From: a virus
Lineage: Duplodnaviria > Caudoviricetes
Virus record (IMG/VR): IMGVR_UViG_3300037485_000603
Location: 1 to 53,736 of that record
Length of the DNA: 53,736 bases
Strand: one strand, 5' to 3'
The translations under genes and the position numbers were made by a program. Within the stretch, counting starts at the first letter, position 1. Each line of letters starts with the position of its first letter. The notes under the pieces were generated by a model. It had not been told where the DNA came from and did not search any database. It saw nothing but the letters and a program-made list of their open reading frames with translations. This document shows, one piece after another, positions 227 through 53,418 of this stretch.

Positions 227-880
227 CTAGTCGGTGCCGGTCTTGCCGGCCACTAGGCGCAGGTGCTGCGCGAGGTCGCGCTTGAGTGCGTCAGGCGTTG
301 CACCCGGCGCCTTGTTGCCGGCATCGGGCTCACGGAACAGGCCAGAGGCGCGGGCCATCAGTTCGAGGGCTCTCATCTGGACCATGTCCGACCCGGCCTT
401 ACTGTGCGCCAGAAGCCTTCGCATCACGTACCGCTTCGTCGCCGCCATGTCTTCCGCCAGCGCTTCCTGCGTCTCTTCCCATGCTTCCGCGATCAGCGCT
501 TTGATCCTTGGATTGCGTCCCAGGCGATGCGCCATGACCGCCACGCTCTCATCTGTGGCGCCTGATCCATACGCATCCCGATAGGACTGTTTCAGGCTCT
601 TCCCCTCGATGACCCCTCGGGCGAAGGCGATTTGCTTGGGTGTCAGAGGCTTGACCCTCCTGTAATCAGGTGCCCCTCTTAACTGTCCGTCCTTCCTGGT
701 CCCTGGCTGCGGTGATGCCCAGGCGGCCTGTTCCGCTTCGCTCCCTTCCGGGCCGGGCTCTTGTGCGTTTACACGCTCTAGGTCCGCCTCCGCCTCTTGC
801 AGAGCCTCCAGGTACTCCATAGGGTCCGCCTTCTTCCCCCTCGCTGCCCGGGCCCGTTCAATCCCTGATGTTTCGTACAT
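227..880 (-). CDS. Terminase small subunit-like HTH protein
   Basis: LTPKQIAFARGVIEGKSLKQSYRDAY...AHRLGRNPRIKALI resembles the TerS N-terminal HTH; the start could be 820. Confidence 0.7.
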   Translation of the reverse strand: MYETSGIERARAARGKKADPMEYLEALQEAEADLERVNAQEPGPEGSEAEQAAWASPQPGTRKDGQLRGAPDYRRVKPLTPKQIAFARGVIEGKSLKQSYRDAYGSGATDESVAVMAHRLGRNPRIKALIAEAWEETQEALAEDMAATKRYVMRRLLAHSKAGSDMVQMRALELMARASGLFREPDAGNKAPGATPDALKRDLAQHLRLVAGKTGTD

Positions 881-909
881 ACCTATGCTTCCATCCAGTG
901 GTGTTCACA

Positions 910-1341: not shown

Positions 1342-1926
1342 ATGGCTACACGCGAAGACTGGCTCATGTCCCTCGTGGATGAAGTACGCCCCCTGTTCGA
1401 GGCGCACACTGGCGCCCCCTTGCCCGCCCGCATCCGCGTGGCTTGCGGCTTCCCATCTTCTGCCCGCCGCTCGGGCGCCATCGGTGAGTGCTGGGCCGAC
1501 GCTAGCTCAAAAGATGGGCACTTCGAGATCCTGATCTCGCCCGTCCTGGACGACCCCGCGACGGTCGCAGCCACCCTGGTGCATGAGCTTTGCCATAGCC
1601 TGCCGGGTTCGATGAACCACAGCAAGACCTTCGCCACCCACGCAGCGAACATGGGCCTTGCCCCCGGCGCGAAGGGTTGGAAGAGCACCGGACCGGGCGT
1701 GGACTTCGACTCGCGCTACGGCGCGATCCTGGGTGCCCTTGGTGCCTATCCCCATGCCCAGCTTGTTATGTCTGACAAGCCAAGGCAAGCCACCAGGATG
1801 CTGAAAGCGGTTTGCCCTAGCTGCGGATACACGATCAGGTTGACGAAGAAGTGGGCCGATATGGGCCTGCCTTTGTGCCATCAGGATGGCGAGCAATTCG
1901 CCCTCGAAACCAGCGACGAGGAGTAA
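1342..1926 (+). CDS. SprT-like zinc metalloprotease with C-terminal Zn ribbon
   Basis: HELCH (HExxH) plus downstream His (NHSKTF); CPSCGYTIR...CH; strong RBS. Confidence 0.8.
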   Translation: MATREDWLMSLVDEVRPLFEAHTGAPLPARIRVACGFPSSARRSGAIGECWADASSKDGHFEILISPVLDDPATVAATLVHELCHSLPGSMNHSKTFATHAANMGLAPGAKGWKSTGPGVDFDSRYGAILGALGAYPHAQLVMSDKPRQATRMLKAVCPSCGYTIRLTKKWADMGLPLCHQDGEQFALETSDEE

Positions 1927-1930
1927 AGAG

Positions 1931-3442
1931 ATGAACACCAAGATTCTTCAGACCCTGCTGGCCCTGCCCGGGGCCCAGCTTGCCCGGGCCGCCAATGCCT
2001 TGTGCGGCGCCGCCGAGCGCACGAAGGTCGAGGCCGCCCAGGCCCTCGCCTCGCGCATCAGCGCGGGACTCTGCACGATGGAAGACGTCCGCCGCGCAAC
2101 CGCAACAGCCGGCACTCTCCCCGTCGGCGGGCTCGCTCCCCAGGCTCCAGCGCAGTTCCAGGCTCGCGTGTCGGTCAGCGCACCGACCCCGGCATTCCCC
2201 CCCCTGCCCGACCCTCGGATTGACGCAGCCGCCCAGGTAGCCGCCCGGGCCGAGGCCGAGGCCCTGCGCCTCGCCTCCCAGGTGCAGGCACTCGCCGCAT
2301 TGACGCAGACGCACAACAACGGGTTCGCCCGCGTACAAAGCGAGATATCCATCCTCGGCACGACCCTGGCCCAGGGTCTGGGCTCCCTGCGGGCAGAGGT
2401 CGCCACGCTGCGCGACTCGGGTCCCGAGGTCCGCAGCGAGATCGCTGCCCAGGTAGCCACCGCTTTGGCGCCCCTGCTCGCCCAGGCCACGCCGGAGACG
2501 GCTCCCGCAATCATCGCCTCGGTGGCCGCACCTACAGGGCAGCGCTCGACCCTGGAGGTGTTCGGGTTTGATCTGAACGATGCCAAGGGCAACCCCGTCA
2601 TGGTCGATACATGGGCAGATCCCCAGGCCGAGCAGGTCGATCCCTGCTATATCTGGACTGCCCCCCTCCTGCGCCGCATCATCATCGGCGCCGAAACCGG
2701 GCTTTGGCTCGGTGGCCCCAAGGGGACCGGGAAAAGCGAGGCCTTGCGCCAATTCGCCGCCCGCACCGGGCGCAGGTACACCCGCATCAACTTCCGAAAG
2801 TACACCAGTTCCGAGGAATACATCGGCGGCACGGGTCTGGCCGGCGGCGCAACCGCGTTCCAACCCGGACCCTTTTTGCAGGCGTTTACACACCCTGGTT
2901 GTGTCGTGCTGCTCGACGAGATAAGCAACGCCGACCCCGGGGAGCTAGCCCCGCTAAACGGGCTGCTGGAGCCCCGCGCCGCAGTCAGCATCGGCGGCAG
3001 TGTCTGGCGCCGCGCCCCCGGTGTTTACATCGCCGCCGCCGATAACACGCTCGGGTCGGGTGACCAGTCGGGCCGGTACGCCGGCACCCGGGGGATGAAC
3101 AGTGCCCTTATGGACCGCTTTGGTCTTGTTGCGAGGATGGACTACCTGCCCAAACAGCTTGAGATCGATGCCCTGCGCCGCCACACAGGCTGCTCCCAGG
3201 CCCTGGCCGAGCACGTCATGGGCGCGATCCAGGTATGCCGCGCCAAGGTCGACACAGGCGAGGTCGTGGACGCGCCCAGCATCCGCAGCGCGGTGGCCTT
3301 TATTCGGGCACTGCGCTTGATGCCAGTAGCTGAAGCCTGGGCGGACACCATCGTTGCCCGCCAGCCGGTCGAGTCCCATCCCGCCCTGGCCGCGATCTAC
3401 TCCGCGACGATCAACCACGAAACCATCGAGGCCGCACTGTGA
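1931..3442 (+). CDS. MoxR/CbbQ-NirQ-NorQ (CobS-like) AAA+ ATPase
   Basis: Walker A GPKGTGKS, Walker B VLLDEI, AADNT and ALMDRF motifs; N-terminal helical region. Confidence 0.88.
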   Translation: MNTKILQTLLALPGAQLARAANALCGAAERTKVEAAQALASRISAGLCTMEDVRRATATAGTLPVGGLAPQAPAQFQARVSVSAPTPAFPPLPDPRIDAAAQVAARAEAEALRLASQVQALAALTQTHNNGFARVQSEISILGTTLAQGLGSLRAEVATLRDSGPEVRSEIAAQVATALAPLLAQATPETAPAIIASVAAPTGQRSTLEVFGFDLNDAKGNPVMVDTWADPQAEQVDPCYIWTAPLLRRIIIGAETGLWLGGPKGTGKSEALRQFAARTGRRYTRINFRKYTSSEEYIGGTGLAGGATAFQPGPFLQAFTHPGCVVLLDEISNADPGELAPLNGLLEPRAAVSIGGSVWRRAPGVYIAAADNTLGSGDQSGRYAGTRGMNSALMDRFGLVARMDYLPKQLEIDALRRHTGCSQALAEHVMGAIQVCRAKVDTGEVVDAPSIRSAVAFIRALRLMPVAEAWADTIVARQPVESHPALAAIYSATINHETIEAAL

Positions 3443-5040
3443 CCCAGGTAACAGACACCATCCGCGCCCTGCTCGGGCGCCCGACGATCCACGGGTATCA
3501 GGCCCGCCACGGCCTGGAAACTTTCGCGCACGTTGCTTGCTCGTCCCTTGGCCTGCCCCCCGTGCGCGTCCACTGGCAGGCCGGGGTCCAGACTGCGGCA
3601 ATCAACCGCAGCGGGGATCTGATGCTCTCGGATATCCGCGACGACGCCCAGGTGCGCCGGGCGCAATTTGTCCGCTGGGTCGGGTACGTGGTCCACGAAC
3701 TCCTCCACCGGCGGTATACGGACTTTGGCGCCAGGGATGGCCGGTCTTACGTGGACGCGCTCCACAACGCCCTCGAAGACGCATGGATCGAGTCCCGGGC
3801 CATCCGCGAGGGACTGCTCGGCAACATCTCCGGGGTACTCCGCGAGCTTATCGACGGGATGACTTCCGAGGCTATCGCCTCGGGCCATGACTGGTCCGAT
3901 CCCCGTCAGTATCCCTACAGTATTGCCGTTTACACGCGCCCCCATGCCAGCATCAAGGCCCCGGTGCCGGCCACGCTCCTGCCGGTATGGCGCGAGGCCC
4001 TGGCACGTATCGCCCTGGCCAATAGCTCGCATGACACCCTGGCAGTGGCCCGCTGGGTATACGACCAACTGCAGATCCCGCCGCAGCAACAGCAGCAGCA
4101 GCAACAGCAGCAGCAACAGCAGGGCAAAGCCGGAGGCGCCCAGGCAGGAGGCGCCCAGGCAGGCGACGCCCAGGCAGGCGACGCCCAGGACGCCCAAGAC
4201 GGAAAACCCCGGGCCGGATACGCCGAGGTGCCCGACGCTGGCCCCGCGCAGGCCCCTAAGGCGCACCAGGGCACGCTCGAAACCGAGCCCGAGATGCAGG
4301 GCGGCGGCGGCGCGGGATTCGGGCCTACCGGGGTTCTGGAGCGCGCCGCACTGCACTCGTTTGACCGCTACGAGATCAAACATCAGATCCCGGGCGGACT
4401 GCGCTATCAAGTTCGCCGACTACTGGAGTGCTCCGGGCGCGAAGACCTGGACTCGCACCGGCTCGCTGGTAGCCTGGACACGCGGCGCATCGCCGCCTCG
4501 GCCTGGACCGAAAGGGTCTTCGCCCGCCGGATCGAGGAGGCCGGGATCGAGGCCGCTGTAGTTGTTCTGCTCGACATGAGCGGGTCGATGGGTGGCGAAC
4601 GTGCTCCGGTCGCTATCCCTGCCGCCCTGGCCCTGCTGGAGACTGTCGAGGCGGCGCAAGCCTCGGTCATGGGTGCAGTTTTTGGCGACGAGGTGGCGCC
4701 CTTCAAGCGCTGGACCGAGACAACCCGCCGCGTCACTCCCCAGGCCCGCCGCCTGATGCTGGCCGGGGGGACCAATGACTACTACGCTATCCGATGGGCG
4801 CACGATCAACTCCTGCGCCACCCTGCGCCACGCAAGGTTGTCCTGGTCTTAACCGACGGAGTCGGGGACGGGTACAAGGCTCGCGCCCAGATTGCTAGCG
4901 GCTCGCGCCTGGGTGTCCAGACCATCGGTATCGGGATACAGGCAGACGTCTCCAATGTCTACGGGCACGGCTCACCCTGCGTTGTGTCGCTGGCAGACCT
5001 GGGTTCTGTCGCATTCCAGCAAATCAAGCAAGCCGCTTGA
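3439..5040 (+). CDS. VWA-domain protein (CobT-like partner of the AAA ATPase) with N-terminal HExxH
   Basis: HELLH and NALED N-terminal motifs; MIDAS DMSGSM...GGT...TDG; GTGA overlap with the ATPase gene. Confidence 0.85.
   Translation: MTQVTDTIRALLGRPTIHGYQARHGLETFAHVACSSLGLPPVRVHWQAGVQTAAINRSGDLMLSDIRDDAQVRRAQFVRWVGYVVHELLHRRYTDFGARDGRSYVDALHNALEDAWIESRAIREGLLGNISGVLRELIDGMTSEAIASGHDWSDPRQYPYSIAVYTRPHASIKAPVPATLLPVWREALARIALANSSHDTLAVARWVYDQLQIPPQQQQQQQQQQQQQGKAGGAQAGGAQAGDAQAGDAQDAQDGKPRAGYAEVPDAGPAQAPKAHQGTLETEPEMQGGGGAGFGPTGVLERAALHSFDRYEIKHQIPGGLRYQVRRLLECSGREDLDSHRLAGSLDTRRIAASAWTERVFARRIEEAGIEAAVVVLLDMSGSMGGERAPVAIPAALALLETVEAAQASVMGAVFGDEVAPFKRWTETTRRVTPQARRLMLAGGTNDYYAIRWAHDQLLRHPAPRKVVLVLTDGVGDGYKARAQIASGSRLGVQTIGIGIQADVSNVYGHGSPCVVSLADLGSVAFQQIKQAA
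4084..4188 (+). repeat. In-frame CAG/CAA poly-Q13 tract plus 4 x 15-bp (AG[GD]AQ) repeats
   Basis: 13 Gln codons at 4084-4122; GCMGGMGRCGCCCAG x4 at 4129-4188. Confidence 0.95.
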
Positions 5041-5084
5041 AACCAGTAGCCCCCCACTGGGGGTATCAACAGGAGTGTTTAAAC

Positions 5085-5593: not shown

Positions 5594-5889
5594 ACAAAAA
5601 AGGCGCAATGCAGGCATCCCGTTACTGCGTCCATGTCTACCGATGGGGGCGCAACTGGACCATGTCCTGCCCTTGGGACATGTCCAGCCCGATGGGGCAC
5701 TACACCGTGCATCAGTACTCGACCTACGTCCAGGCCCGCCGCGCCGCAGCCTGCGCCCGGGCAGAGGTTGTCCTGTCCATGATGGGTCGCCTGTCCGAGG
5801 AGGCTCGGGCAGAGATCCATTGGTATTCATCCGATCCGTACAAGGATCGTTCGTTCCGTGCCCTGGTTAAGGCCGGTCTTAGCGTGTAA
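5590..5889 (+). CDS. hypothetical protein
   Basis: GAGGAGG RBS, ATGA overlap. Confidence 0.6.
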   Translation: MNKKGAMQASRYCVHVYRWGRNWTMSCPWDMSSPMGHYTVHQYSTYVQARRAAACARAEVVLSMMGRLSEEARAEIHWYSSDPYKDRSFRALVKAGLSV

Positions 5890-5901
5890 ACAGGAGACGT
5901 C

Positions 5902-6264
5902 ATGGAAAGGCGGGAGTACTACGGACAGATCCAGTGCGTAGAGAATCGTTTCGCCGCCAGGATTTGGCGATCCCGGAACGAAGAAATTCCGGACTGCGAG
6001 CCGTTCGGAATGTCCTCGGACTACGAGGTGGATCCGTGGAGGTTGGTCCACGAGAAGGAGTTTTTGAGGAAGGTCATGGAAAACACCTTCCTCACCCCGA
6101 GGGAAATGCGGGTAATTGATGAGCGTTTTTTCAGCGATCAAACGCTGGATGAGATTGCTCATCGGCACGACATAACGCGGGAGAGAGTCCGCCAGATACT
6201 GGAAAAAGCCCTTAGGAAACTGAGGATAGTTGCTAGCAGGGAGTTTAAACATGAACACGCATAA
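5902..6264 (+). CDS. Stand-alone sigma70 region 4 HTH protein
   Basis: LTPREMRVI...TLDEIAHRHDITRERVRQILEKALRKLR closely matches RpoD region 4.2. Confidence 0.85.
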   Translation: MERREYYGQIQCVENRFAARIWRSRNEEIPDCEPFGMSSDYEVDPWRLVHEKEFLRKVMENTFLTPREMRVIDERFFSDQTLDEIAHRHDITRERVRQILEKALRKLRIVASREFKHEHA

Positions 6265-6621: not shown

Positions 6622-6690
6622 ATGACCGACCGCAATCTTTTGATCGTTTACATAATCATCACGATCCTGCTGCTGACCGGGGTCATATGA
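6622..6690 (+). CDS. Possible 22-aa membrane peptide
   Basis: MTDRNLLIVYIIITILLLTGVI; fills the gap and couples by ATGA to the next ORF. Confidence 0.4.
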   Translation: MTDRNLLIVYIIITILLLTGVI

Positions 6691-6975: not shown

Positions 6976-8673
6976 TCAGAACGCGTCTAGGTTCTCGCTG
7001 TACGTCCCTGCGGTACGGTTGAAGAGGAGGGTCGTTTCTCCCTGCGTCCCGACCCACCGATACCGGCACTTCCAAACTGCGATCTCGACGTACCTATCCT
7101 GCCGGTGGACCGTCAAGCCGCAGTCTGCCTTAGCCCACCATGCCATGGACCCGCTGATGCTCATGCCATCCGGCCGGGGTTGATCTGTCCCTGACCGCGC
7201 CATCTTCGATGGGTGAGCAACGAACCATGTGTGAACATCCTGCGCCTTGCAAAACCTTTGGACCCTGGTCAGCATCTGACTGATAGCGTCAGTTTCTGTC
7301 GTGTCCTTACGGTCTAGATCGATGTAGTTGTACGGGTCTATGACCATTCCCCGCACACCCATGCGCTTGACTGCTGCCCGGGCTCTGGTCAGGATGCTAT
7401 CCAGAGTGTTGGGCTCTTCCCCCGCTGAGTCGATGAAGAGGAAGTGCTCCTTGACCCATGTAAACGCCTCCTCCTTCTCCTTCTCGGTCATCCGGTCTCG
7501 ACCCTCGAAAAACCTTTTGTGTGTGTAGATTTCCATCAACCTGCTGATGTGGATCTCTGGGGAGTTCTCGAAGGATGCAACGGCAAACTTCCAATCGCTC
7601 TTCCTGGCGAGGTTGACCATCAACTGATCAACGAAATTGGACTTGCCCGAAGATGGATAGCCAGTGACCACGGTCAACTGCCCAGGAGCCACCGTGTAAA
7701 TGCTGTCGAGTGCGGGATACCCGGTGCTGAACCCCGAGCCCTGCCCCTTGGAGTAAAGGTCGTTTACACGTTCCTCGAAGGTGCTGGCGTCCGACAGGCC
7801 TGCGATGGGGTACGGATCCGCCGCCTCCACGATAGCCCGCACATCCTCCTTGCCATTCCGAGAGGGGTCATTGAGGATCTCGTTGAAATCCTTGGCATCG
7901 AACTTTGCCAATCGGCACTTGTCCTTGCCAATCCTTCTGGCAAGCTCTTCAGCCAATGCTTGCCCCGGCGGATCCTGATCTGTTGCAAGAACGACGTAAG
8001 GAACAGCATCAAGGAGTTCGCGTGCGTTCCATACAAATGCGAACTTCTTGTCTTCAGATGGAAGAACCTTCCCATCTGCCACCTTCAGTGGAGCGCCACC
8101 CGGCACTGAGACTACGTTCTCGATGCCTGCTTCCTTGGCAGACAGGACATCTATCTCTCCTTCGACGATGACCAGTGGCTTGGTCTTGTCTGCCCACTGC
8201 ATCCCAAAGAAGTCATGCGCCCCGCCGGAGTCTTGTGTAAATGCCTTGTCCGGGACTGCCCGATATTTCACTGCGACCATCACCCCGTCTCTGAAGTACG
8301 GGAACCCAATCGCCTCTGCCTCCTTGTCCAGCTTGTTGAAGTACTTCCTTGTGGAGAAGAGCTTGGCCTCGTCTGATGTCAGCCTTGATATACCCCGGCC
8401 TTCAAGCCAAGCGTAGTGTTCCTCTGTAAGCCTTGCGTCCTCGATCTTGGGGACTGCTTGCACGTATCTCTCCTTCCTGTGTTCTCTGTTATCCCTTGAA
8501 GGGATGATTCCGTTTACACCGCAGTGATGGCAAAAGTAGAGCACTGACCCGTCTTCTTTACGGGTCAGGGTCATGTCTTTGCTTCTTGTTTTTTTCCTAT
8601 CCCTGGTGCATTCGGGACAGGCTACGCGGGCGTGGTCGTTGAAATGTGTTTGCTCAAGGACCGCTTCGATCAT
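6976..8673 (-). CDS. T7 gp4/Twinkle-type DNA primase-helicase
   Basis: Zn finger CPEC...CHHC, TOPRIM (EGEID, DQD), SF4 helicase (TGYPSSGKS, IDPYN, VAHP, ISGS). Confidence 0.93.
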   Translation of the reverse strand: MIEAVLEQTHFNDHARVACPECTRDRKKTRSKDMTLTRKEDGSVLYFCHHCGVNGIIPSRDNREHRKERYVQAVPKIEDARLTEEHYAWLEGRGISRLTSDEAKLFSTRKYFNKLDKEAEAIGFPYFRDGVMVAVKYRAVPDKAFTQDSGGAHDFFGMQWADKTKPLVIVEGEIDVLSAKEAGIENVVSVPGGAPLKVADGKVLPSEDKKFAFVWNARELLDAVPYVVLATDQDPPGQALAEELARRIGKDKCRLAKFDAKDFNEILNDPSRNGKEDVRAIVEAADPYPIAGLSDASTFEERVNDLYSKGQGSGFSTGYPALDSIYTVAPGQLTVVTGYPSSGKSNFVDQLMVNLARKSDWKFAVASFENSPEIHISRLMEIYTHKRFFEGRDRMTEKEKEEAFTWVKEHFLFIDSAGEEPNTLDSILTRARAAVKRMGVRGMVIDPYNYIDLDRKDTTETDAISQMLTRVQRFCKAQDVHTWFVAHPSKMARSGTDQPRPDGMSISGSMAWWAKADCGLTVHRQDRYVEIAVWKCRYRWVGTQGETTLLFNRTAGTYSENLDAF

Positions 8674-9440: not shown

Positions 9441-9748
9441 TTCGATCTCCAGACGGGCTGTGCCCGCGCATGACTCCTGACCGAGCGGCTGCTTCTGTAT
9501 TCGCCCGTCTTCTCAATGAGGTTGAGCTTGGACAGATGTAAACATACCGCTCCCCATGCGTTCGGAGAGGGTGGATAGGGTAGACCGTTGTTCTCTGCCC
9601 TGACCCTGACCTCCTCGAACAGGGCGCCTTTGTACCCTATGTCTCGGAGGTATGCAAGCGCTATTTTGAGGGCGGCGCTATGCCAGTCACTTCCTGCATT
9701 GAACAGAGCTTGCTGAGCCCCAGCATCTCTCAGAGTTTGACCGTCCAT
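9437..9748 (-). CDS. hypothetical protein (possible winged helix)
   Basis: PPSPNAWGAV...IEKTG...SH...VWRS pattern; first ORF after the long structured leader. Confidence 0.65.
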   Translation of the reverse strand: MDGQTLRDAGAQQALFNAGSDWHSAALKIALAYLRDIGYKGALFEEVRVRAENNGLPYPPSPNAWGAVCLHLSKLNLIEKTGEYRSSRSVRSHARAQPVWRSK

Positions 9749-10197: not shown

Positions 10198-10248
10198 ATC
10201 CTACGTGATGCCGCCGGGGTTTGCAAGCGGAAACCTCTGGGCTACACT
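10198..10248. promoter_or_regulatory. Back-to-back sigma70 promoters sharing a palindromic -35 TTGCAA
   Basis: - strand TTGCAA(10226-10221)-17-TAGGAT; + strand TTGCAA-16-TACACT(10243-10248). Confidence 0.65.
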
Positions 10249-10703
10249 GTCTTCCGCTCAGTTGCTTGAGCGATCTCCCTCCTGTGGCGCTGGGTAGCGC
10301 CTTGACCCCGGTGAGCGCGTCTCCCGGGGTCTTTTTTTTGCCCCGGGATCTCCCGGACTGTGATCACACATCGAGGGCACTCCTTGTCTTGATGCCAGTA
10401 GATGTGCTTCTCCTTGACCTGCCTGTCGTTTACATAGAGCCTTCCCTGGAGCAGATCTAAGATGAGGCTCTCATCCAAGTCTGGCCGTCGGGAGGCGTAC
10501 CAGATGTGGATCTCGACCGAGACATCCTTGTCTGTCGGGTTCTCGACAGGCACACATTGCTGTTGAAACGCATCTGCGTAGGTCAGTGCCTTCTGGCTCT
10601 TGATCAGCCGGGACATCCCTCCGAACCGGACAAGCCTTCGGCTGTTGGCTTTGCTGGCCGGCTCCCCAAAAATTTCTCTTGTCTCACAAAAAAGTGCTTG
10701 CAC
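10242..10703 (-). CDS. rusA: RusA-like Holliday junction resolvase
   Basis: GEPASKANSRR, RRPDLD, LLQGRLYVNDRQV motifs; GTG start at 10703 preferred over 10745. Confidence 0.8.
   Translation of the reverse strand: MQALFCETREIFGEPASKANSRRLVRFGGMSRLIKSQKALTYADAFQQQCVPVENPTDKDVSVEIHIWYASRRPDLDESLILDLLQGRLYVNDRQVKEKHIYWHQDKECPRCVITVREIPGQKKDPGRRAHRGQGATQRHRREIAQATERKTV
10255..10339 (+). ncRNA. Putative ~85-nt sRNA with anti-Shine-Dalgarno seed
   Basis: Hairpin CGCTCA/TGAGCG, unpaired ATCTCCCTCCT, hairpin GGCGCT/AGCGCC, then intrinsic terminator. Confidence 0.65.
10304..10339 (+). terminator. Rho-independent terminator of the putative sRNA
   Basis: GACCCCGG...CCGGGGTC followed by T8. Confidence 0.8.
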
Positions 10704-10726
10704 TGCATCTAAGCTAGTGCTATGCT
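10698..10726 (+). promoter_or_regulatory. sigma70 promoter of the recombination/accessory operon
   Basis: TTGCAC-17-TATGCT with extended -10 TG; same pattern as the promoter at 1251. Confidence 0.7.
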
Positions 10727-10756
10727 CTGTCTCATCGTTCAACACAGGAGGTCTCC

Positions 10757-11635
10757 TTGATCATCACCAACAACCACGGTGCCCCAGCTACGCTGGTCGC
10801 CTTGGCGAACAAGAACTATTACTCGAAGGGGGACTCGGACTATTCTGTCACCGAGCTTCTGTCCCCGCCTCGGGTCAGACGCCTACAAGAACGGCACGAC
10901 CCTTCCTTGAAGAAGGATGTGTCGGACATGTTGTGGGCCTTGCTCGGATCGGCACTCCATGTGGTTGCCGAGCGGGCCTCTGCGGAAGGTCATGTTGTTG
11001 AAGAGCGGATCATTGCAGAGGTGGACGGGGTCAAGGTGTCGGGCGCCATCGATCTGCAGGAGATGACCGCCGAGGGCGTGGTTATCACCGACTACAAGTT
11101 CACCTCCGCCTATTCCGTGATGAACGAGAAGAAGGAATGGGAAGAGCAACTGAACCTGTACAAGTGGCTGGTGGAGTCCGTCAAGAGGATCCCAGTCAAA
11201 GGTCTCAAGATTTGCGCATTGATCCGTGACTTCTCCCGCCATGACCGGCGCGAGAACTATCCGGAGTCCCCGATCCATATGGTGGACATCCCGATGTGGG
11301 ACTCAGTCAAGGCAGAGGCGTTTGTGCGTGCTCGTTTACATCTGCACGCAGAAGCCAAGTTTGCTGACGCGATGGAGGGTCCGCTTCCTCCTTGCTCTGC
11401 AGAAGAGCGTTGGTTCTCAGAGACGACCTACGCTGTGAAGAAGGAAGGCAGGAAGACTGCCGTCCGTGTGTTCAAGACCATTGAAGAGGCCAACGAACTG
11501 GCCGCGAAAGAGAAGGCTCACTATGTCGAAGTCCGAGTCGGAGAACCCCGCCGTTGCACTGGAAACTACTGTAACGTCGCAGAGCACTGCGACCAATGGC
11601 AGTCAGAAGTCCGTGCTGGATCTGCTGAAACTTGA
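10757..11635 (+). CDS. PD-(D/E)XK Cas4-like exonuclease
   Basis: GSALH, SGAID, TDYK, QLNLY motifs; C-terminal Cys cluster RCTGNYCNVAEHC. Confidence 0.85.
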   Translation: MIITNNHGAPATLVALANKNYYSKGDSDYSVTELLSPPRVRRLQERHDPSLKKDVSDMLWALLGSALHVVAERASAEGHVVEERIIAEVDGVKVSGAIDLQEMTAEGVVITDYKFTSAYSVMNEKKEWEEQLNLYKWLVESVKRIPVKGLKICALIRDFSRHDRRENYPESPIHMVDIPMWDSVKAEAFVRARLHLHAEAKFADAMEGPLPPCSAEERWFSETTYAVKKEGRKTAVRVFKTIEEANELAAKEKAHYVEVRVGEPRRCTGNYCNVAEHCDQWQSEVRAGSAET

Positions 11636-12580: not shown

Positions 12581-12604
12581 TCTCGTTTACACCAGGAGAA
12601 AACC

Positions 12605-12952
12605 ATGAACAAGACCAAGCAAGCTGAAGACATGTTCCGCGCAGACCCCTCTCTCTCCGCCAAGGAGGTTGCTGAGAAGCTGGACATGCACATCAGCCAC
12701 GCCTACAACACGCGGCGGAAGATTGTGGGCGCGGTCTTCAAGAAGAACCGCAAGACCCAAAGGACCATGAAGGTCGTGTCGATCAATCAGGAGCCCAAGC
12801 AGGAGCCCAAGATCAGCGACAAGCATGTGGAGGCGATGGGCAACTCCAACATCCTTCTCCAGGCTCAACTGAACGAGGCACTGCGGGAGCTTGAGGACTG
12901 CCGTGCCGTGATTCGGTATCTGGAGAATAAGATCAATGCCGATGCAGTTTGA
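12605..12952 (+). CDS. HTH-containing hypothetical protein
   Basis: PSLSAKEVAEKLDMHISHAYNTR; AGGAG RBS. Confidence 0.65.
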   Translation: MNKTKQAEDMFRADPSLSAKEVAEKLDMHISHAYNTRRKIVGAVFKKNRKTQRTMKVVSINQEPKQEPKISDKHVEAMGNSNILLQAQLNEALRELEDCRAVIRYLENKINADAV

Positions 12953-13313
12953 GGCGCGAAAGGTCGCCCTCAAGCAGGACAGGACAGGGTTCGTGCTAAC
13001 CATGTCCGTCCACCCCGACGAATTCCCGTCAGAGCTTTTGCGGGACTTCGTTGGGGCAAGGTACGCCTGTGTGATGGTGCGTATAAACGACGACGAGACG
13101 CCCGTTGTCTACAAGAACAGGGTCCAGCAGGCAGGAATGCTTTGCAAGAACCCCAACTTCCAGAAGTTCATGAACACCAAAGGGGAGGACGCCACTGTCA
13201 AAGCCTTGTGCGACCGTCTTGGGGTTGACTCCCGGACAGAACTCAATGGCAACTCACTGGCTCAATCCCTCTTCGACGACCTTATGGCGGAGTTTGAAAA
13301 TGAAGCCTTCTAA
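12936..13313 (+). CDS. conserved phage hypothetical protein
   Basis: Coupled ORF with GC3-rich codon usage. Confidence 0.7.
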   Translation: MPMQFEARKVALKQDRTGFVLTMSVHPDEFPSELLRDFVGARYACVMVRINDDETPVVYKNRVQQAGMLCKNPNFQKFMNTKGEDATVKALCDRLGVDSRTELNGNSLAQSLFDDLMAEFENEAF

Positions 13314-15009: not shown

Positions 15010-15021
15010 CAGGGGATCGCC

Positions 15022-16036: not shown

Positions 16037-16044
16037 AACAAGGA

Positions 16045-18979: not shown

Positions 18980-19067
18980 CCACCATTCATTTCTACTGCC
19001 CGCTGCGTCGGGCATATGTATCAATGCAAGTGCCGACAGAGACGGCTTTCAAACTGGCGGGGTTGGT

Positions 19068-40794: not shown

Positions 40795-42288
40795 TTACCA
40801 GAACACTACGACAGCGCCACCGCCGCCACCGCCACCACCGCCACTTTGATTAGCACCACCGGCACCAGCAGCACCTCCGTTTGCTGCGCCCCCTTGAACG
40901 CCCGCTCCCCCCGCTCCCCCAGCGGCACCAGAGCCACTAGACGCATTACTTCCTGCGGCACCCACGCCGTTAGTAAGCCCGCCAGTTCCTCCGTTGCCTG
41001 ACACCGCTGTATTTCCCCCGCCACCCCCGCCACCACTCCCTGCGCCACCGCCTCCCCCCGCAGTGGTGCCGCAACCAGAGGTTCCAGAATTACCGACAGC
41101 CCCTGTCGCTGTGAGACCGAGCGACGGACCCCGTCTAACCAACAGCGTTGCACTGCCGCCTGTAGTAACAGTCCCTGCGGCGCCCGTGCCTCCTGCGCTA
41201 GGACCTCCTGCGCCGCCAGTACAACTTACATGCGACCCGAAAGACGACGTATTACCCGCACTGCCTGCGCTGGGAGTTCCGTTGGCTCCTGCACTGCCTG
41301 CGCCGCCTGACCCCACTGTGACAGAAACAGTTGATAGTGGCGTAAGCCCTGATACTCGCGCAAAAGCTGCGCCTCCGGCGCCACCAACACCACCACCAGA
41401 AAGAGTATTATTGCCGTTACCTCCTGAACCACCACCGCCGCCAGCCATGACGGCTACGTAAACGGTGGTAACCCCCGCAGGAACTGTAAACGTGCCGCTT
41501 GCGTCGAATGTCTGGCTGTTTGGGCCCGCATAGGAACTTGGTGCAGCAGCACTGGCCCAGGTGCCACCGACAGAAGTCAGGACGTTCCCCGCAGTCCCGG
41601 GGGCTACTGTTTGAACAGCCCCGGTGTCGTTGCCCAGCAGGACGTTGTTCAAGGCCAGCGTGGCTGCGCCCGTGCCGCCTGAGGCCACAGGGAGCGTGGT
41701 CACCCACGAAGGAATGCCCGCAGCGACCGTCAGGACTGCGTTGGTTGCGCCCACCGTGAGCTTGCTCAGCGCGGTGGTGGTGGAGGCGTAGAGGAGATCT
41801 CCAACCGCGTAGCTGGCCTGCCCCGTGCCGCCTGAGGTTGCAGGCAGGGCTGTGCCGAGGGACATGGACGCCGCGTAGGTCATGGCCTCTTCCACGCCCA
41901 AGTTGGTCACCCGCACGACCACAGACTTGCCGTTGGGGACAACAACGCTGGTGCCCCCGGTTGTGACGGTGACGTCCTGCCCCGCGCCGTTCTTGACGAA
42001 GTACAGCTTGAAGTTGGTTGAGGTGCCTGCGGGCAGTGAAACCGTGGCCGTCTGCCCCGAGGTGAGGGAGCCAGTGATAGCCAGGAATTGGTTCCGGGCA
42101 TCCGAGGATGCGCCATCCGCAATCAAGGGGACCGTCGTCGTCGCGCCCGCAGTAACAGCAATGCTTACCGCCCCTGTCAGGGACTGTTCCACCATGTCCG
42201 TAAAACCGCTGTTGACCGCAGTACCCCAGCCTGCATCTCCCAGGCCGGGTTTATTGAACTTGAGGATAGCGGTATACGATGAAGACAT
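40795..42288 (-). CDS. Tail fibre with Gly-rich C-terminal domain
   Basis: GGTG repeats, SGTFTVPAGVT..V..AGGGGG. Confidence 0.8.
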   Translation of the reverse strand: MSSSYTAILKFNKPGLGDAGWGTAVNSGFTDMVEQSLTGAVSIAVTAGATTTVPLIADGASSDARNQFLAITGSLTSGQTATVSLPAGTSTNFKLYFVKNGAGQDVTVTTGGTSVVVPNGKSVVVRVTNLGVEEAMTYAASMSLGTALPATSGGTGQASYAVGDLLYASTTTALSKLTVGATNAVLTVAAGIPSWVTTLPVASGGTGAATLALNNVLLGNDTGAVQTVAPGTAGNVLTSVGGTWASAAAPSSYAGPNSQTFDASGTFTVPAGVTTVYVAVMAGGGGGSGGNGNNTLSGGGVGGAGGAAFARVSGLTPLSTVSVTVGSGGAGSAGANGTPSAGSAGNTSSFGSHVSCTGGAGGPSAGGTGAAGTVTTGGSATLLVRRGPSLGLTATGAVGNSGTSGCGTTAGGGGGAGSGGGGGGGNTAVSGNGGTGGLTNGVGAAGSNASSGSGAAGGAGGAGVQGGAANGGAAGAGGANQSGGGGGGGGGAVVVFW

Positions 42289-44700: not shown

Positions 44701-45441
44701 CTAGCTTATGAACATCTGCCTCGGCACGAACCGCACTGCGGCCTTCTCACGGTCTTCTTCCGAAGCACGCTGCCAGTCTTCGTCGTACTGCGCCTTCAGA
44801 ACCTGCATACGCTCCATAGCGCCAGGGATCTTCATCGACAGGTAGTACGCCAGCCCAGACACGAGGCAGGGCAGGAAGCGGAAGGGGATGTCCTGGGTGT
44901 ACTCACCACCAGACCCTGCATCCTGAATGCGCCGCAGATACCAGTAGACGAACTGATACACACCCGTCTGGTCAGGCGTGGGCCACACCGTGATGCTCGG
45001 CAGGGCTGTGGCGCTCGGAGAGTAGCCGCTGGTGGCCGGGTAGGTCGCACCGGAGTTCCGGTTGACCAGCACCTGAATGGGCCGCGCCTGCTGTAGCTTG
45101 TTCGGGATGGACGAGTACGTGCTGATGCTGATCCGCGTGATCGTCAGATCAACCTGGGTCGAGACGTTCCCTGCCCCCGTGCGGATGACATGCTCCAAGA
45201 GGTCCACGGTGTCTGACGGTAACGTGTAGGTGTTGGTCCCCTGTACCAGGGGAATCGTGCCCTGGTTGAAGGTCCACATGTTTACACCACGGTTCGCCCA
45301 GTCTGCAAACAGCAGGTTCAGGGACCGCCGCGCCGTGCGCAGGTCATAGCCCGTGCGAAGCTCGGATCCGCAGCGCTCAAACGCCTCCTCGACCGCGTCA
45401 TTGAGGTCGAGGTTGAACGTGGTAGCCCCTGAGGTAGGCAT
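44701..45441 (-). CDS. Head completion/adaptor-like virion protein
   Basis: EEAFERCG...ARRSLNLLFADWANRG...RFLPCLVSGLAYYL. Confidence 0.75.
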   Translation of the reverse strand: MPTSGATTFNLDLNDAVEEAFERCGSELRTGYDLRTARRSLNLLFADWANRGVNMWTFNQGTIPLVQGTNTYTLPSDTVDLLEHVIRTGAGNVSTQVDLTITRISISTYSSIPNKLQQARPIQVLVNRNSGATYPATSGYSPSATALPSITVWPTPDQTGVYQFVYWYLRRIQDAGSGGEYTQDIPFRFLPCLVSGLAYYLSMKIPGAMERMQVLKAQYDEDWQRASEEDREKAAVRFVPRQMFIS

Positions 45442-45694: not shown

Positions 45695-46605
45695 CAGCAC
45701 ACCTTGCAAGGCCTGACACCGCGTTGAGCAATGCCAGCACCCCGGACACTGCCACCCTTGGCGTAGGTTTTCACCTTGCCGCCCTTCTTGAACTCGCCAT
45801 CCTCTTCGTCCCGGGTGCGGGAACGCGGAGATTCCTTGGCCTTTTCCGTCCGAAGGATAGGCTTGTCTGCCTTGGCTTCTGCTGCGGCCTGAGAACGGCC
45901 CGTCCGAGCCTCTTGGACTGCCTTGCGGCTTGCAGCGCCCCTGACAGCAGAGGTTGCTGCTTCCATCTCTTCTGCTGGTGTAAACCTACGCCCAGCGTCA
46001 GAGGTGGTTGCCGTCGATCTCATGGGAGTGCCGCGCCCTATGGAGCCAGAACTCATGTCTTTTGCCAATTCTTTGGCAAGTGCTTCTTTAGACATGCCCC
46101 CCGAAGGGGTTGCGCCCCCAGGGTACTTTTCATCAATTTGGCGAACGATTGCCTGCCATTTACTAGGGTCCGCACCCGCCGGAGGCGTATCACGCCAATC
46201 GCGTGCAGCCTTTGCCCCAGCCATAGCGGTTCGAGCGGCACTACCTGCGCCTGCGCCAACAAACGCGGCGCCAAGCCCGCGCCCAGCAGGGACACGATCC
46301 GCGCCTTCAGACATGCCGCGAACGAGCAAGCCAGGGATGTCCTCAACCGAAGCACGGCGACGGGGAGTTTCAACACGCGGGGCAACATTTGCTTCCTGCG
46401 GCCCCCGCGCACGCATGTCACGTTCGCTAGACACTTCAGGCAGCTTTCCAGAGCGATCTGCGTTCAGAAGATCTCTGAGGGTCTTGTCGGCGCCGTACTT
46501 ACGCCGAAAGTCCGCAAGCTCCTCACGGCTGACGAGGGCCCGGCCCTGGTCATCTTCACCCCGGTTTTTTACCGGGCCGGTGTATGACGTTCTGCTGTAC
46601 GACAT
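45694..46605 (-). CDS. Hypothetical protein with C-terminal tag
   Basis: Ends FKKGGKVKTYAKGGSVRGAGIAQRG. Confidence 0.7.
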   Translation of the reverse strand: MSYSRTSYTGPVKNRGEDDQGRALVSREELADFRRKYGADKTLRDLLNADRSGKLPEVSSERDMRARGPQEANVAPRVETPRRRASVEDIPGLLVRGMSEGADRVPAGRGLGAAFVGAGAGSAARTAMAGAKAARDWRDTPPAGADPSKWQAIVRQIDEKYPGGATPSGGMSKEALAKELAKDMSSGSIGRGTPMRSTATTSDAGRRFTPAEEMEAATSAVRGAASRKAVQEARTGRSQAAAEAKADKPILRTEKAKESPRSRTRDEEDGEFKKGGKVKTYAKGGSVRGAGIAQRGVRPCKVC

Positions 46606-47457: not shown

Positions 47458-47458
47458 G

Positions 47459-48139: not shown

Positions 48140-48922
48140 TCAATCATCGAACACGAACAGGGCTCCCGGGGCCATTGTGCCCACGTAGATGCCCCCAGGG
48201 CCGTAGATCACGCCTGCCCGGACATCTGACGGGGCCGGGTACTCAGAGACATTTACAAGCGATGCATCCTGTCCACTAATTACATACGTCCCGGCTTGCG
48301 CAAACAACAACCATGTCTTGTTAAGCGATGCTGGTTGCCCCGTATTGATGTACGACCCAGGGTCCGCAGAAAGCTGCCCCAGCGCAAGAAGAGATGCATC
48401 CTGGCCGAAGATCGAGTACGAACCCGCCTCTGCGTTGACGTTCCGGCTTGCCTGTAGCGCTGCGTCCTGGCCCGTGATGGCGTAAGCGCCGACCTCAGCG
48501 TTTACATTCCTCGCGGCCAGCAGAGTGGCGGCTTGGCCCAGGATGTCGTAGGCACCGACCTCTGCGTTTACAGCCCGCCCAGCAAACAGCGATGCTGCTT
48601 GCCCATCAATTGAGAACGTCCCGGACTCTGCGTTGATGCTTCGCGGCACCAGCAGCGTAGCGTCTTGGCCTGTGATGACATATGTGCCTGCCGCAGCATC
48701 AATCGCCCTGGGAACCGAAAGCGTGGCGTCTTGGCCTGTGATGGCATACGTACCAGCCGCTGCATCAATAGCTTGGGGGACCGAGAGCGTGGCATCCTGG
48801 CCCGTGATGACGTAGGAGCCGACTTCTGCGTTGAGGGTGTACGCTGTCGAACCGCCAGACGCAAATATCCACCCAAACGAACCGTTGTTCGTTGAGTTAG
48901 TACCTGCGTACCAGTCGCTCAT
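48140..48922 (-). CDS. Repetitive (22-aa unit) tail-associated protein
   Basis: About 9 repeats of [IV][ND]A[EA].G.Y.ITGQDA.L. Confidence 0.75.
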   Translation of the reverse strand: MSDWYAGTNSTNNGSFGWIFASGGSTAYTLNAEVGSYVITGQDATLSVPQAIDAAAGTYAITGQDATLSVPRAIDAAAGTYVITGQDATLLVPRSINAESGTFSIDGQAASLFAGRAVNAEVGAYDILGQAATLLAARNVNAEVGAYAITGQDAALQASRNVNAEAGSYSIFGQDASLLALGQLSADPGSYINTGQPASLNKTWLLFAQAGTYVISGQDASLVNVSEYPAPSDVRAGVIYGPGGIYVGTMAPGALFVFDD

Positions 48923-51900: not shown

Positions 51901-53418
51901 CCCTGCAAGGTTCCAGTACACCGTCTTGCCCGCAGGGAACGTGATGCCGCTGTTGCCACCGCAGTCGCCTGCACGGGTCGGAGAAGACCCAGCAGCAGTG
52001 CCGGTGATGGCAATGTCTCTGAAGTCGCAGTCGGTGGCGCTGAGCGTGCCTACGCTGAGCGTTCGTTGGGCGCCCAGGGTGTCAGAGCGGACGAAGATGC
52101 GTCGGACTGCGGTGGCTCCAGCAACGGTGAGGGTGCCGGTGATGGTTGGATTGGCGTTGAAAGTACACCCCATCAGACCCGCAGAGGCTGGCGCAGTCAG
52201 GGTGAAGTTGTTAAATGTGTTAGCCCCAGTGATAACGTGTGTCACGGCAGTGGTGCCTGTAAACGAAACGTTGTAGAACGTCAATTCACCCCCAGCAAAT
52301 GTAGCTGCGGCGGTAGACGACATATTTATCTGCGACGTTCCTGGGCTAAGCGTCAAATTAGTTGGCGTTGTAAACACTATCGGCGTTGTCCCGCTCAACG
52401 TCACCGTACTACTACCAAGCGTAATAGCCCTGACGTTGTTATTATCGGAAGATATCGAGGCTGCCGTGACGTTGAAGTTCTTGGTGTCAAAGGCGCCGTT
52501 GGTGACGGTGAGGGTATTACTACCCATGTTAAGCGCGCCCCCTAGCTCGACGGAGCCGTTAAAGGTATCAATTTCTAACGGGGAATTAAAGGCACTACCT
52601 GCGGTAGAAAGTACCTGTGTTTTTCTCCCGCGCATTACAAACGTGGTTCCAGCGTTTAGGGTAGTTAACGCATTAAAAAGCCAGTCCCCGTACAAGGAAA
52701 ATGTGGTCGCATTTACAAATGTTGTAGCCGTTGCTCTTGCGGAAACATCGATTGTGCCCGTATAAGGAATTGACGCATCAAACGTAATAAGCCCAATCGT
52801 TGCAAAATTGGTAAATACGGCCGTATCCTGCGCCAACGGAAAATATATACTGTTAGGAGTCCCTGTCGAAGTGTTGGACCATGCGTTATTGTTCCAAACA
52901 ATTCCGCCCGTAACTGTTCGAGTCCAATATACGGTTTTTGGTGTACTAAAGACGATATTAGCGTTACCCTTAAGGTCGCCAATACGTGTGCCAGTTAACG
53001 TGCCTCCCGTACCAGTAATGCGTATATCACGGAAATCTGCGTCAATTACCGTTCCGATGGTGGCAATCTGTATGTCACGCATCAAACCGTAAGTTGAAGA
53101 TCTGAATAAAACTCTTTGGTATCCGCCGGTGCCGACACCCGTAGCAGAAAAAGTTCCTGCAATAACAAATCCGTTACTTACGATAAATTCGGTAACGCCA
53201 ATTACATTTTCTGGTGTAAACGTAAAATTAGCGCAAGTGGAATTGTCCGTCACCGTGACGGTGTAATGCGCCGCTCCGGAGCCCGAGTTTGCGTCAAAAA
53301 TTACATTGTCTGCAGACGTAGGCACAGACGCACCTGACGCCCCTCCAGACGTAGCGGACCAATTAGTGGTACTGTTCCAGTTACCTGTCCCGAGGGGAAC
53401 CCAGTATCTGTCGGCCAT
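48922..53418 (-). CDS. 1498-aa Thr/Gly-rich repetitive tail fibre/adhesin-like protein
   Basis: Five YW...W...W...GG...(FPLAQD/VP..DNV) repeat units separated by beta-helix-like T/G stretches. Confidence 0.8.
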   Translation of the reverse strand: MADRYWVPLGTGNWNSTTNWSATSGGASGASVPTSADNVIFDANSGSGAAHYTVTVTDNSTCANFTFTPENVIGVTEFIVSNGFVIAGTFSATGVGTGGYQRVLFRSSTYGLMRDIQIATIGTVIDADFRDIRITGTGGTLTGTRIGDLKGNANIVFSTPKTVYWTRTVTGGIVWNNNAWSNTSTGTPNSIYFPLAQDTAVFTNFATIGLITFDASIPYTGTIDVSARATATTFVNATTFSLYGDWLFNALTTLNAGTTFVMRGRKTQVLSTAGSAFNSPLEIDTFNGSVELGGALNMGSNTLTVTNGAFDTKNFNVTAASISSDNNNVRAITLGSSTVTLSGTTPIVFTTPTNLTLSPGTSQINMSSTAAATFAGGELTFYNVSFTGTTAVTHVITGANTFNNFTLTAPASAGLMGCTFNANPTITGTLTVAGATAVRRIFVRSDTLGAQRTLSVGTLSATDCDFRDIAITGTAAGSSPTRAGDCGGNSGITFPAGKTVYWNLAGTQNWSATAWAPSSGGTPDINQFPLAQDTAVFDNTGSVTGTITINTAWNIGTFDASLRTTAMTLTTSTNLPFVYGDWKFGTGVTSSTATGTITFAGRGTKTITSNGVTFNIPIVINSITGTVQLADALTIGSARTLTLTSGTFDAVTYNVTTWSFTLTGGTLKMGSGLWTLAGTGTIWSMGTPVAFYKGTANIFLSSTTSLSRTFTGGGLSYNKLTITPNGNNLIVNGNNQFTEFAAPLTINHSISFGTTTQTFGKWTISGGNFGLILVSLFGNATHILAGACTSGIDWLAMDTFGFAATSPGEFYAGANSTGTAGAPVYRTAKPADSTRYWVGGTGNWSDTARWSTSSGGASGASVPRSHDNVVFNSASNATAYTATVDAVTGGVRMKALTIAGPASGNVTLAGSTAMVGIHGNVTLPATGLTRTYTGGIVLSGSATGRTLTTNGVTLASAVTVNGVGCGWALGSAFSTSSSFINTNGSIDFAGYAVSISFIVSATTNSRTFNLGASTITLTGSGGTSGLGTTESERANLTFIAGTSQLNLSGQSSELVGNNQTFYNISFTSALVGTPVIRGANSFNNLSFTGITSAGLNNISLTANQTVTGTLTFSAGTNATMRHFVQSNIIGTTRTITAAAVSMTDVDFRDVTIAGAAAPASGTRIGDCKGNSGITFTAAANKYWNLAGGGNWSAVGWATTSGGSLAINNFPLAQDTCFFEATGLNSGATVTIDQSYNIGTINMSARTANTMTLATGTGAPFIYGNWINGTGTTLSGTGTITFAGRGSQTLTSAGKTFTQQLRTETPGGSVTLQDSLTVSENSTNAFVLWAGTFDAAIYNVTLSGGSSFMSAGVSTSVRTLAVGSGTWTAANAWSTATSTNLTVTGTGTITLTSASAKTFSGGGVSYTNITLNQGGAGALTITGNNTFKDITNTYKATGATNITMGNTTQRVSQWTAAGEAGRLLTIQGVSSISPCRLIHTGTGTAANVDYLVITGVRAY

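Follow-up and report, generated by a model that had tools for sequence, protein, structure and literature searches.

We analysed the whole of the IMG/VR virus record IMGVR_UViG_3300037485_000603, a DNA of 53,736 bp (hereafter the window; GC content 57.5%, completeness estimate 89%), for the short word GTTTACA, or TGTAAAC on the opposite strand, which occurs in 42 copies. The word is a DNA-level site and not a coding or compositional effect, and it recurs in a family of related phages. Calling of open reading frames for this analysis gave 55 genes covering 85% of the window. In the following, the 23 copies that read GTTTACA are called plus-strand sites, and the 19 copies that read TGTAAAC are called minus-strand sites.

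Sites and genes in the window

The leftmost plus-strand site (767-773) is antisense in a TerS-like gene (227-880). Behind it lies a cassette of three plus-strand genes (1342-5040). The first codes for p194, a SprT-like metalloprotease (1342-1926) with HExxH, a C-terminal zinc ribbon and a weak SprT-like Pfam match. The second codes for a MoxR-type AAA+ ATPase (1886-3442; annotated as CobS-like, Pfam AAA_5), and the third for its CobT-like partner with a VWA domain (3439-5040). Plus-strand sites lie in sense in the ATPase gene (2884-2890 and 3023-3029) and in the VWA gene (3928-3934). A minus-strand site at 5885-5891 is directly upstream of a ribosome-binding site (RBS) and the ATG at 5902, and a plus-strand site at 6646-6652 is outside the gene calls.

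The gene for a T7 gp4-like primase-helicase (6976-8673, minus strand), the marker of the family, carries a minus-strand site in sense (7459-7465) and two plus-strand sites in antisense (7762-7768 and 8512-8518). Beyond it are a minus-strand site outside the gene calls (9537-9543) and the gene of a RusA-like Holliday-junction resolvase (10242-10745, minus strand), our candidate reader of the word, which itself holds a plus-strand site in antisense (10428-10434). Two more plus-strand sites follow, one outside the gene calls (11334-11340) and one just upstream of the RBS of gene 12605-12952 (12585-12591). After the gene of a ribbon-helix-helix (RHH) protein (13219-13665, plus strand), there is a minus-strand site (14659-14665), antisense in 14408-14794.

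The gene of a 3358-aa polyvalent protein (20570-30646, minus strand) has minus-strand sites in sense at 21788-21794, 23477-23483, 26207-26213, 26467-26473 and 29309-29315, and plus-strand sites in antisense at 22274-22280, 22808-22814, 24260-24266, 24686-24692, 25793-25799, 27827-27833 and 28523-28529. To its right, minus-strand sites are in sense in 32280-33128 (32928-32934), in the structural gene 34672-36063 (35265-35271) and in 40795-42288 (41485-41491). The structural gene 36060-38282 holds both kinds, minus-strand sites in sense at 36650-36656 and 37395-37401 and plus-strand sites in antisense at 36309-36315, 37269-37275 and 37836-37842. The minus-strand site at 39529-39535 is outside the gene calls. 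Plus-strand sites are antisense in 44701-45441 (45280-45286) and in 48140-48922 (48500-48506 and 48566-48572), and a gene of 1498 aa carries the last minus-strand sites in sense (52258-52264, 52369-52375 and 53215-53221). The 41 positions listed in the initial annotation of this DNA all held exact copies; the copy missing from that list is the minus-strand site TGTAAAC at 45979-45985.

The palindrome GTTTAAAC, which is the dominant form in most relatives, is present three times against 0.19 expected: between an RBS and a GTG (5077-5084), directly before an ATG (6243-6250) and at 17009-17016. As the annotation had stated, RBSs or start codons adjoin two of the sites (5885, 12585) and two of the palindromes (5077, 6243).

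Over-representation and exact form of the word

Expected counts were computed for both strands under Markov models of orders 0-5, and the motif written in reverse served as a control word. Under orders 0, 1, 2 and 3, 3.86, 2.68, 3.04 and 6.15 copies were expected, and GTTTACA ranked first among all 7-mers in each case, with z of 19.4, 24.0, 22.4 and 14.5. The Poisson tail for 42 copies against 3.04 expected was 7e-33. The genome-wide excess that had been estimated from base composition as about 10-fold is thus real and larger than claimed (42 against 3-6 expected), and it stands up to the z-score check proposed with it. Orders 4 and 5 expected 15.8 and 29.1 copies. These two nulls were set aside as tests, because the 5- and 6-mers that feed their expectation come from the motif and show a 4-5-fold enrichment of their own (TGTAAA, 56 against 10.4; GTAAAC, 51 against 12.1). 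Such expectations are circular and do not refute the enrichment.

The 42 sites were preceded by C (27), T (11) or G (4), and never by A. CGTTTACA accordingly had 27 copies (15 + 12) against 0.87 expected, while its reversed control had 4 (3 + 1). The full site in the window is [C>T][G>A]TTTACA, that is, YGTTTACA in its main form. The position after the pyrimidine accepts A as well, as seen in CATTTACA (7 against 0.5) and ATTTACA (10 against 1.5), and the remaining one-base variants of the word were near expectation and not depleted.

Of the related words that had been named with GTTTACA, two hold: GTTTAAAC, with its three copies, and GTGTAAAT, whose five copies are part of the tolerated ATTTACA form. 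GTGTACAC is present twice, without shown enrichment. The suggested consensus GTKTAMAY had to be replaced by Y-R-TTTA-M-A, as G at the third position of the word gave no clear enrichment (4 against 1.4). Logos of the flanks to 12 or 14 bases on either side showed only the pyrimidine at -1, plus a purine after the palindrome in relatives. The word does not belong to any longer repeat or promoter.

Selection at the DNA level

Inside genes the word is used equally in both directions: among the 36 of 42 sites within called coding sequences (CDS), 18 are sense and 18 antisense, and they occupy 3 of the 5 stop-free frames, as had been noticed in outline. Two codon nulls were applied. Shuffling of synonymous codons within genes (1000 shuffles) gave 3.44 +/- 1.79 CDS sites with a maximum of 9, and shuffling of codon order gave 3.30 +/- 1.86 with a maximum of 11, against the 36 observed. 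The dipeptides that carry the word were not enriched (V-N, 46 against 39.5; F-T, 38 against 36.6), whereas the codon pairs were (GTA-AAC, 18 against 3.9; TTT-ACA, 14 against 2.8), and GTA makes up only 11% of Val codons. The claim that the word is a site read in DNA is borne out by its survival of the codon shuffles and by the equal sense and antisense use. Selection keeps the word in place, mostly by the choice of rare synonymous codons and in some cases by accepting an altered amino acid.

Some other words were also above expectation in the window. CGGCAC (92 against 36), ACTAC (92 against 39) and GACTAC were enriched on the sense strand in one frame; these are codon-pair effects and not DNA sites. 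GTTTACA is unlike them in strand and frame, which supports its reading at the DNA level. GATC (668 against 443) and CCCGGG (92 against 41, strand-counted) were above expectation too.

The mean spacing of the sites was 1279 bp, in agreement with the 1.3 kb given before, and was Poisson-like with a coefficient of variation (CV) of 1.04. Across the genomes examined the CV was 0.88-1.10, with no clusters and no phasing. Strand counts were balanced in the five genomes with asymmetric sites (23:19, 21:20, 17:18, 12:13 and 28:28). Runs of orientation and its cumulative excursion were random, with no regional switch and no tie to local GC skew, and orientation was independent of gene direction in the window and four other genomes. 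A polarity test of the Chi/KOPS type found no strand bias. None of the 40 variant places listed (of 847 in total, from assembled contigs) falls inside a site.

The longest site-free stretch of the window is 14659-21788 (7.1 kb). Within it, a part of about 5 kb (roughly 15.7-20 kb) holds small genes for which the relatives have hardly any homologues or none, which is weak evidence for fewer sites in accessory genes; family-wide, site density differed modestly between orphan or accessory genes (0.90 per kb) and core genes (1.24 per kb).

The word in the phage family

Family loci were collected around relatives of the primase-helicase. The family comprises hundreds of contigs (219-596 tblastn-confirmed relatives per query), with genomes of about 60 kb. 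Among 61 primase loci of at least 10 kb, 59 had GTTTAAA and/or GTTTACA among their four top 7-mers, and a typical locus carried 20-69 copies per 20 kb against 1-4 expected. Another 88 loci of 8 kb or more, found with two other genes, all had an observed/expected ratio of at least 4. A logo built from 529 GTTTAAA sites (11 loci) read Y-GTTTAAAC-R; 83% of the sites had C at +7. In 15 of 25 whole records there were 16-49 GTTTAAAC sites, compared with 0-2 for the reversed word; the relatives G015-G017 had 30-49 against about 0.4-1.5 expected. GTTTACA was enriched alongside GTTTAAA in most loci, so that a single specificity, YGTTTAMA, is common to the family.

The window sequence or parts of it were found in 20 runs from 11 studies of freshwater, lake-water and sediment metagenomes. 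A megablast search with 23.7 kb of the window against cultured phages gave no match, and the nearest cultured relative by protein was the Planktothrix/Synechococcus phage Pag-Yong1/MinM2 (32.5% identity in the primase). A block with the large terminase, portal and major capsid genes is absent from the window and present in all complete relatives (cf. G016:15370-23101), which agrees with the completeness estimate of 89%.

Phages of 45-60% GC carry the same word. Related contigs were binned into metagenome-assembled genomes (MAGs) of several phyla, which is probably mis-binning; in 10 bacterial MAGs holding such contigs, which are not proven hosts, the word was at or below the reversed control. 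Equal enrichment in other genomes, which would have argued against a site, was thus not seen, either in these MAGs or in the related motif-free phages described below. The comparison of genomes showed the trait to belong to the phage lineage, not to composition. The lack of enrichment in the MAGs and the sharing of the word by phages of different GC favour a phage-encoded reader.

The form of the word varies between clades. In the window clade (primases of 91-94% identity, and L159/G013 with 74%) nearly all sites are of the ACA form, with 0-1 palindromes per locus, and the clade's genome G010 has no TTTAAA in 66 kb. As judged from the relatives, the ACA form of the window is derived within the family. 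Another clade (G014, L089, L090 and L092) has GTTTAAA followed by T, G or A, in 9-24 copies per locus, and the full palindrome only 1-3 times; in G014, 2 palindromes were found among 73 TTTAAA sites, together with 56 asymmetric sites. These two clades with hardly any palindromes indicate that the working unit is the asymmetric 7-8-mer, which a palindrome gives on both strands at once. The clade-specific loss of TTTAAA or of the full palindrome looks like avoidance of DraI- or PmeI-type restriction, and such purging may record restriction pressure from hosts. G010, the genome without TTTAAA, also codes for a C5 DNA methyltransferase (529-aa open frame, G010:23768-25279).

Conservation in related phages, another check that had been proposed, was in favour of the sites. 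Sites were identical at 9 of 20 places in G010 and 7 of 19 in G011, compared with a fraction of 0.16-0.21 for other 7-base windows (P 0.0025-0.057). The sites at 8512 and 45280 are conserved in both genomes, and the column of the latter is GTTTAAAC in G017. In the primase alignment, columns 317 (site 7762) and 418 (site 7459) keep a site across relatives that are only about 68% identical in protein (about 30% divergence). Column 317 is GTTTAAAC in G016 and G017, column 418 is GTTTAAA in G015, G016 and G017, and the switch between AAA and ACA at these columns comes with K/T and L/V replacements. There was also much turnover of sites between relatives. Turnover with maintained density is expected if density, more than the individual sites, is under selection. 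The relatives are 63-92% identical in DNA (high-scoring segment pairs of at least 300 bp), too distant to place recombination breakpoints against the sites.

Other iterated words were seen in phages around the family. Relatives in the structural module that are without GTTTAMA (L002, the closest with 88% identity, and L035, L038, L050, L061 and L072) have other mildly enriched words, including GAGTACA (8 against 0.9), CTACTCC (12 against 0.8) and CTACACC/CTACAAC. In Pag-Yong1 (L412+L413, OL906435.1; 68.9% GC), GTTTAMA is absent and there are about 25-30 copies of a 19-21 bp palindrome, CCGGTTCAG-S-CTGAACCGG, for example at 29687, 30599, 35979, 36241 and 38426, whose 9-mers occur 20-26 times against 0.7-0.8 expected. 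Many of these copies appear between small early genes in the CDS table of the record. The Pag-Yong1 palindrome is a different kind of iterated element.

A lineage that lost the word

One lineage of the family, G008/G009, showed no enrichment of the word despite similar composition. It consists of four contigs of one species, with primases 99-100% identical. Compared with motif-bearing genomes, its capsid protein is 86-92% identical, its terminase about 80%, its primase 69% and its polyvalent protein 42-54%. The lineage retains orthologues of the RHH protein, a Sak annealase, a PD-(D/E)XK exonuclease and a 94-aa protein, and it lacks the RusA-like gene and the cassette of p194, MoxR and VWA genes. 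The slot of the cassette is occupied by an ArdC-like anti-restriction protein (ArdcN + Peptidase_M78; L118:13004-13765), which suggests that the slot between TerS and the primase is an anti-defence locus.

The cassette was present in 146 of 146 motif-positive loci and absent from 4 of 4 motif-negative loci in which the slot was covered. The RusA-like gene was present in 190 motif-positive loci and in two borderline loci (3.8- and 4.0-fold), and was lacking from the one motif-negative locus with a covered slot; the loci of these counts partly overlap, and the loss of the motif is one evolutionary event. With the motif-free primase as the query for intermediate lineages, we found only the four contigs of one species, so that RusA and the cassette were inseparable. 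Searches for the RusA-like protein or p194 on other phage backbones returned family members only, and the RusA profile had no match in 25 structural-gene relatives, which are fragmentary.

As G008/G009 keep the primase, the RHH protein and the giant polyvalent protein in the absence of the motif, they speak against all three as readers. The gene content leaves RusA, the cassette or a change of host as candidates. A comparison of primase zinc fingers gave no difference that tracks the motif. Differences in the beta-strand of the RHH protein were also considered as an explanation, and were confounded with phylogeny, the protein itself being present in the motif-free G009. Searches of the PDB by sequence with p194, the 94-aa protein and RHH gave nothing usable, and an atlas search with the MoxR N-terminus had no match.

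Candidate readers of the word

From these results we infer that a factor encoded by the phage, in either the RusA or the cassette gene set, reads the site. The sites may be obligate targets of the RusA-type Holliday-junction resolvase, our favoured candidate, which we propose tentatively and with well below an even chance. The protein matched Pfam RusA with 26.8 bits (E 8.9e-6, cut-off 22.8) and PHROG 140, and the top 7 PDB matches of its model were all E. coli RusA (E 4e-5, TM 0.63-0.66). Its alignment had 51 invariant columns across 19 family members, and such strong conservation fits a constant specificity. D88, D90, E91, D96 and D106 were invariant in the family alignment. For E. coli RusA, D70, D72 and D91 are described as the catalytic acidic residues (PMC1636454). 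The same source describes E. coli RusA as cutting junctions sequence-selectively, preferably 5' of CC at the crossover (PMC1636454).

In the proposed mechanism, the RusA-like enzyme would cut a junction only when YGTTTAMA sits at the crossover. Branched intermediates of replication and recombination, which the Sak annealase and PD-(D/E)XK exonuclease of the phage would help to make, could be resolved ahead of packaging only if branch migration brought them to a site. Selection would favour a density of about one site per kb, irrespective of strand; a palindrome would act for both strand pairs together, and individual sites could turn over while the density is kept. A word-dependent resolvase would thus explain why both strands are used and polarity is lacking, why a palindrome is of value, why placement is random, why selection acts on density and why the word is lost when the enzyme is replaced.

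Several points weigh against the resolvase. Its link to the motif is a single loss event that it shares with the SprT/MoxR/VWA cassette, and a host change could account for the motif-free lineage. Three cultured phages with RusA-like proteins of 41-50% identity (Pag-Yong1, RSK1 and PE067) showed no GTTTAMA enrichment. The model was of medium quality (pLDDT 69.5), and the family sequence profile found no RusA in the PDB. The motif lacks CC, the preference of E. coli RusA, and we know of no resolvase that requires 7-8 specified bases.

Co-occurrence with the motif is no less perfect for the cassette than for RusA. The cassette products might be recruited to phage DNA by the sites, which would then be a self-marking barcode for a DNA-dependent remodeller and protease that, for instance, clears host defence or silencing proteins. 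The HExxH, zinc ribbon and weak SprT-like match of p194 are in line with this, as is the ArdC-like protein in the same slot of the motif-free lineage, which suggests an anti-defence locus with DNA-linked proteases. We consider it unlikely all the same. A DNA-binding domain was not identified in the cassette proteins, and the MoxR model matches NorQ/CbbQ, which are protein remodellers. Its N-terminal helical domain is poorly conserved in the family though the motif is constant, and Pag-Yong1 has VWA and ATPase genes but no motif.

About as improbable is a conserved host factor, be it a nucleoid protein, a regulator that acts on RecBCD/AddAB in the manner of Chi or a function linked to restriction, with the motif-free lineage infecting another host. 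The single motif loss could reflect such a host shift, and the purging of TTTAAA in G010 and of the palindrome in G014 (2 palindromes, 56 asymmetric sites) resembles an imprint of host restriction. The occurrence of the same word in phages of 45-60% GC, however, suggests varied hosts, the sites have no strand polarity, unlike Chi or KOPS, and the MAGs, which are not proven hosts, gave no enrichment.

The initial annotation had looked for the reader among ordinary DNA-binding proteins (the RHH protein, helix-turn-helix proteins or a ParB-like part of the giant protein) acting on sites like stoperators, parS, Noc or SlmA sites. A palindromic site of 8-10 bp would suit a dimeric binder, and the RHH protein is conserved in the family with a beta-strand that differs between the ACA and AAA clades. 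Both named proteins, however, have orthologues in the motif-free lineage (RHH, 52-54% identity, in G009; the polyvalent protein, 48-49%, in G008), and the giant protein had no ParB Pfam match at E<=0.001. The sites are single, unclustered, mostly intragenic and independent of transcription direction and genome position, so the analogies are not supported, and G014 keeps the asymmetric 7-mer while avoiding the palindrome. Such a reader is decidedly unlikely.

The sites could instead be extended recognition sites of the T7 gp4-like primase on both strands, seeding Okazaki fragments every 1-3 kb, for example on a template 5'-TGTAAAC-R with a primer starting with pppG. Nearly all relatives of this primase-helicase have the motif, the two strands carry the asymmetric site equally often, and the per-strand density in the window, about 1 per 2.5 kb, falls within the lengths of Okazaki fragments. 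Known primases, however, read about 3 bases, and the site does not co-vary with the primase: that of the motif-free lineage (69%) is as similar as those of motif-bearing clades (67-71%) and has the same zinc-finger and TOPRIM motifs. This makes a primase site quite doubtful.

Similarly slim is the chance of a covalent mark, whether methylation or some other modification, along the lines proposed for HIP1, or site-specific nicks like those of T5, tf and phiKMV-like phages. HIP1 is an 8-bp palindrome that has been linked to orphan methyltransferases (PMC4390886), and nicked phage genomes with consensus nick sites are described (PMC3517423). Of the three methyltransferase families searched in five genomes, though, N6_N4 (PF01555) and D12 (PF02086) were found in none and C5 (PF00145) only in G010, and nicks on both strands of palindromes would be expected to break genomes with 30-49 of them.

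Biased repair, as in a VSP-like drive, can enrich short words, and turnover of sites between relatives is considerable, but a functionless word of this kind, or one due to codon or composition effects, is very improbable given that one-mismatch neighbours are at expectation and not depleted, that the word survives codon shuffles, that sites are conserved above background, that amino-acid replacements at fixed positions accompany the AAA/ACA switch and that a close relative of similar composition has no enrichment.

Taken together, we picture an uncultured freshwater phage family with a 'self' barcode, YGTTTAMA (usually as the palindrome GTTTAAAC), present through synonymous codons up to more than 100 times per genome (strand-counted), that would be recognised obligately by one of two co-inherited modules, either a RusA-type resolvase with a specificity of 7-8 bases or the SprT-like/MoxR/VWA machine. 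This is a real possibility, though short of an even chance. If true, no earlier HIP-like iterated word would have had a genetic partner that can be named, and this would be the first phage that shapes its entire coding sequence around its own DNA-processing enzyme. The system is small, and the natural knock-out narrows the partner to four genes, so that two or three recombinant proteins would be enough for a direct test. The word is also a simple sequence signature for spotting the family in metagenomes.

Comparison with known systems

No paper on GTTTAAAC or on an iterated octamer in phages was found in the literature searched, in accordance with the earlier remark that no function is described for the word. 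The closest analogue is HIP1 (GCGATCGC) of cyanobacteria. Both are 8-bp palindromes (in most members of the phage family) that occur once per 0.3-1.5 kb, are over-represented tens-fold inside and between genes and have an unsettled function, and both are conserved between genomes, which argues for selection. For HIP1, a 15-300-fold over-representation with conservation is reported (PMC5861425), and a Chi-like role in recombination has been proposed (bioRxiv 10.1101/2024.09.10.611283). Unlike HIP1, the family word is on phage genomes, is AT-rich and different in sequence, has an asymmetric 7-8-mer as its unit in the window clade and G014, is Poisson-like in spacing within about 60 kb, and has no cognate methyltransferase among the three families and five genomes searched. 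With regard to the palindrome that defines HIP-type words, the relatives G015-G017 have 30-49 sites, whereas the main word of the window is non-palindromic and GTTTAAAC occurs there only three times.

Sites of the parS/ParB, Noc and SlmA type are palindromes of about 14-16 bp, few or regionally clustered, whose binder is encoded; the family site is 7-8 bp long and unclustered, with a CV of about 1. Stoperators of Cluster A mycobacteriophages are similar in being short asymmetric words in tens of copies that vary between clades. Stoperators are described as 13-mers that follow the direction of transcription, lie in promoters and short gaps between genes and bind the immunity repressor (PMC9283540). 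The family word differs from them in its length of 7-8 bp, in its intragenic position (36 of 42 in the window) and in its random orientation.

RuvC has a tetranucleotide consensus. With the sequence-selective resolvases, the family shares a RusA-fold protein that co-occurs with the motif, and it is unlike them in that their preferences are of 2-4 bases and need no genomic enrichment, and that the word has no CC. Resolvases such as RusA are described as cutting only at preferred sequences reached by branch migration (PMC1636454).

The family word is non-polar and phage-borne, whereas Chi, KOPS and DUS/USS are all chromosomal, Chi and KOPS being strongly polar and DUS/USS dependent on the competence machinery. 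Chi, KOPS and DUS/USS are over-represented words of 5-12 bases that are kept because a DNA-processing machine reads them. Chi, KOPS, DUS and HIP1 each revealed a machine that handles DNA, and HIP1 is still unexplained after three decades. The word of this phage family joins these short words that selection keeps highly iterated; what is unusual, and helpful, is that only a few candidate partners come with it.

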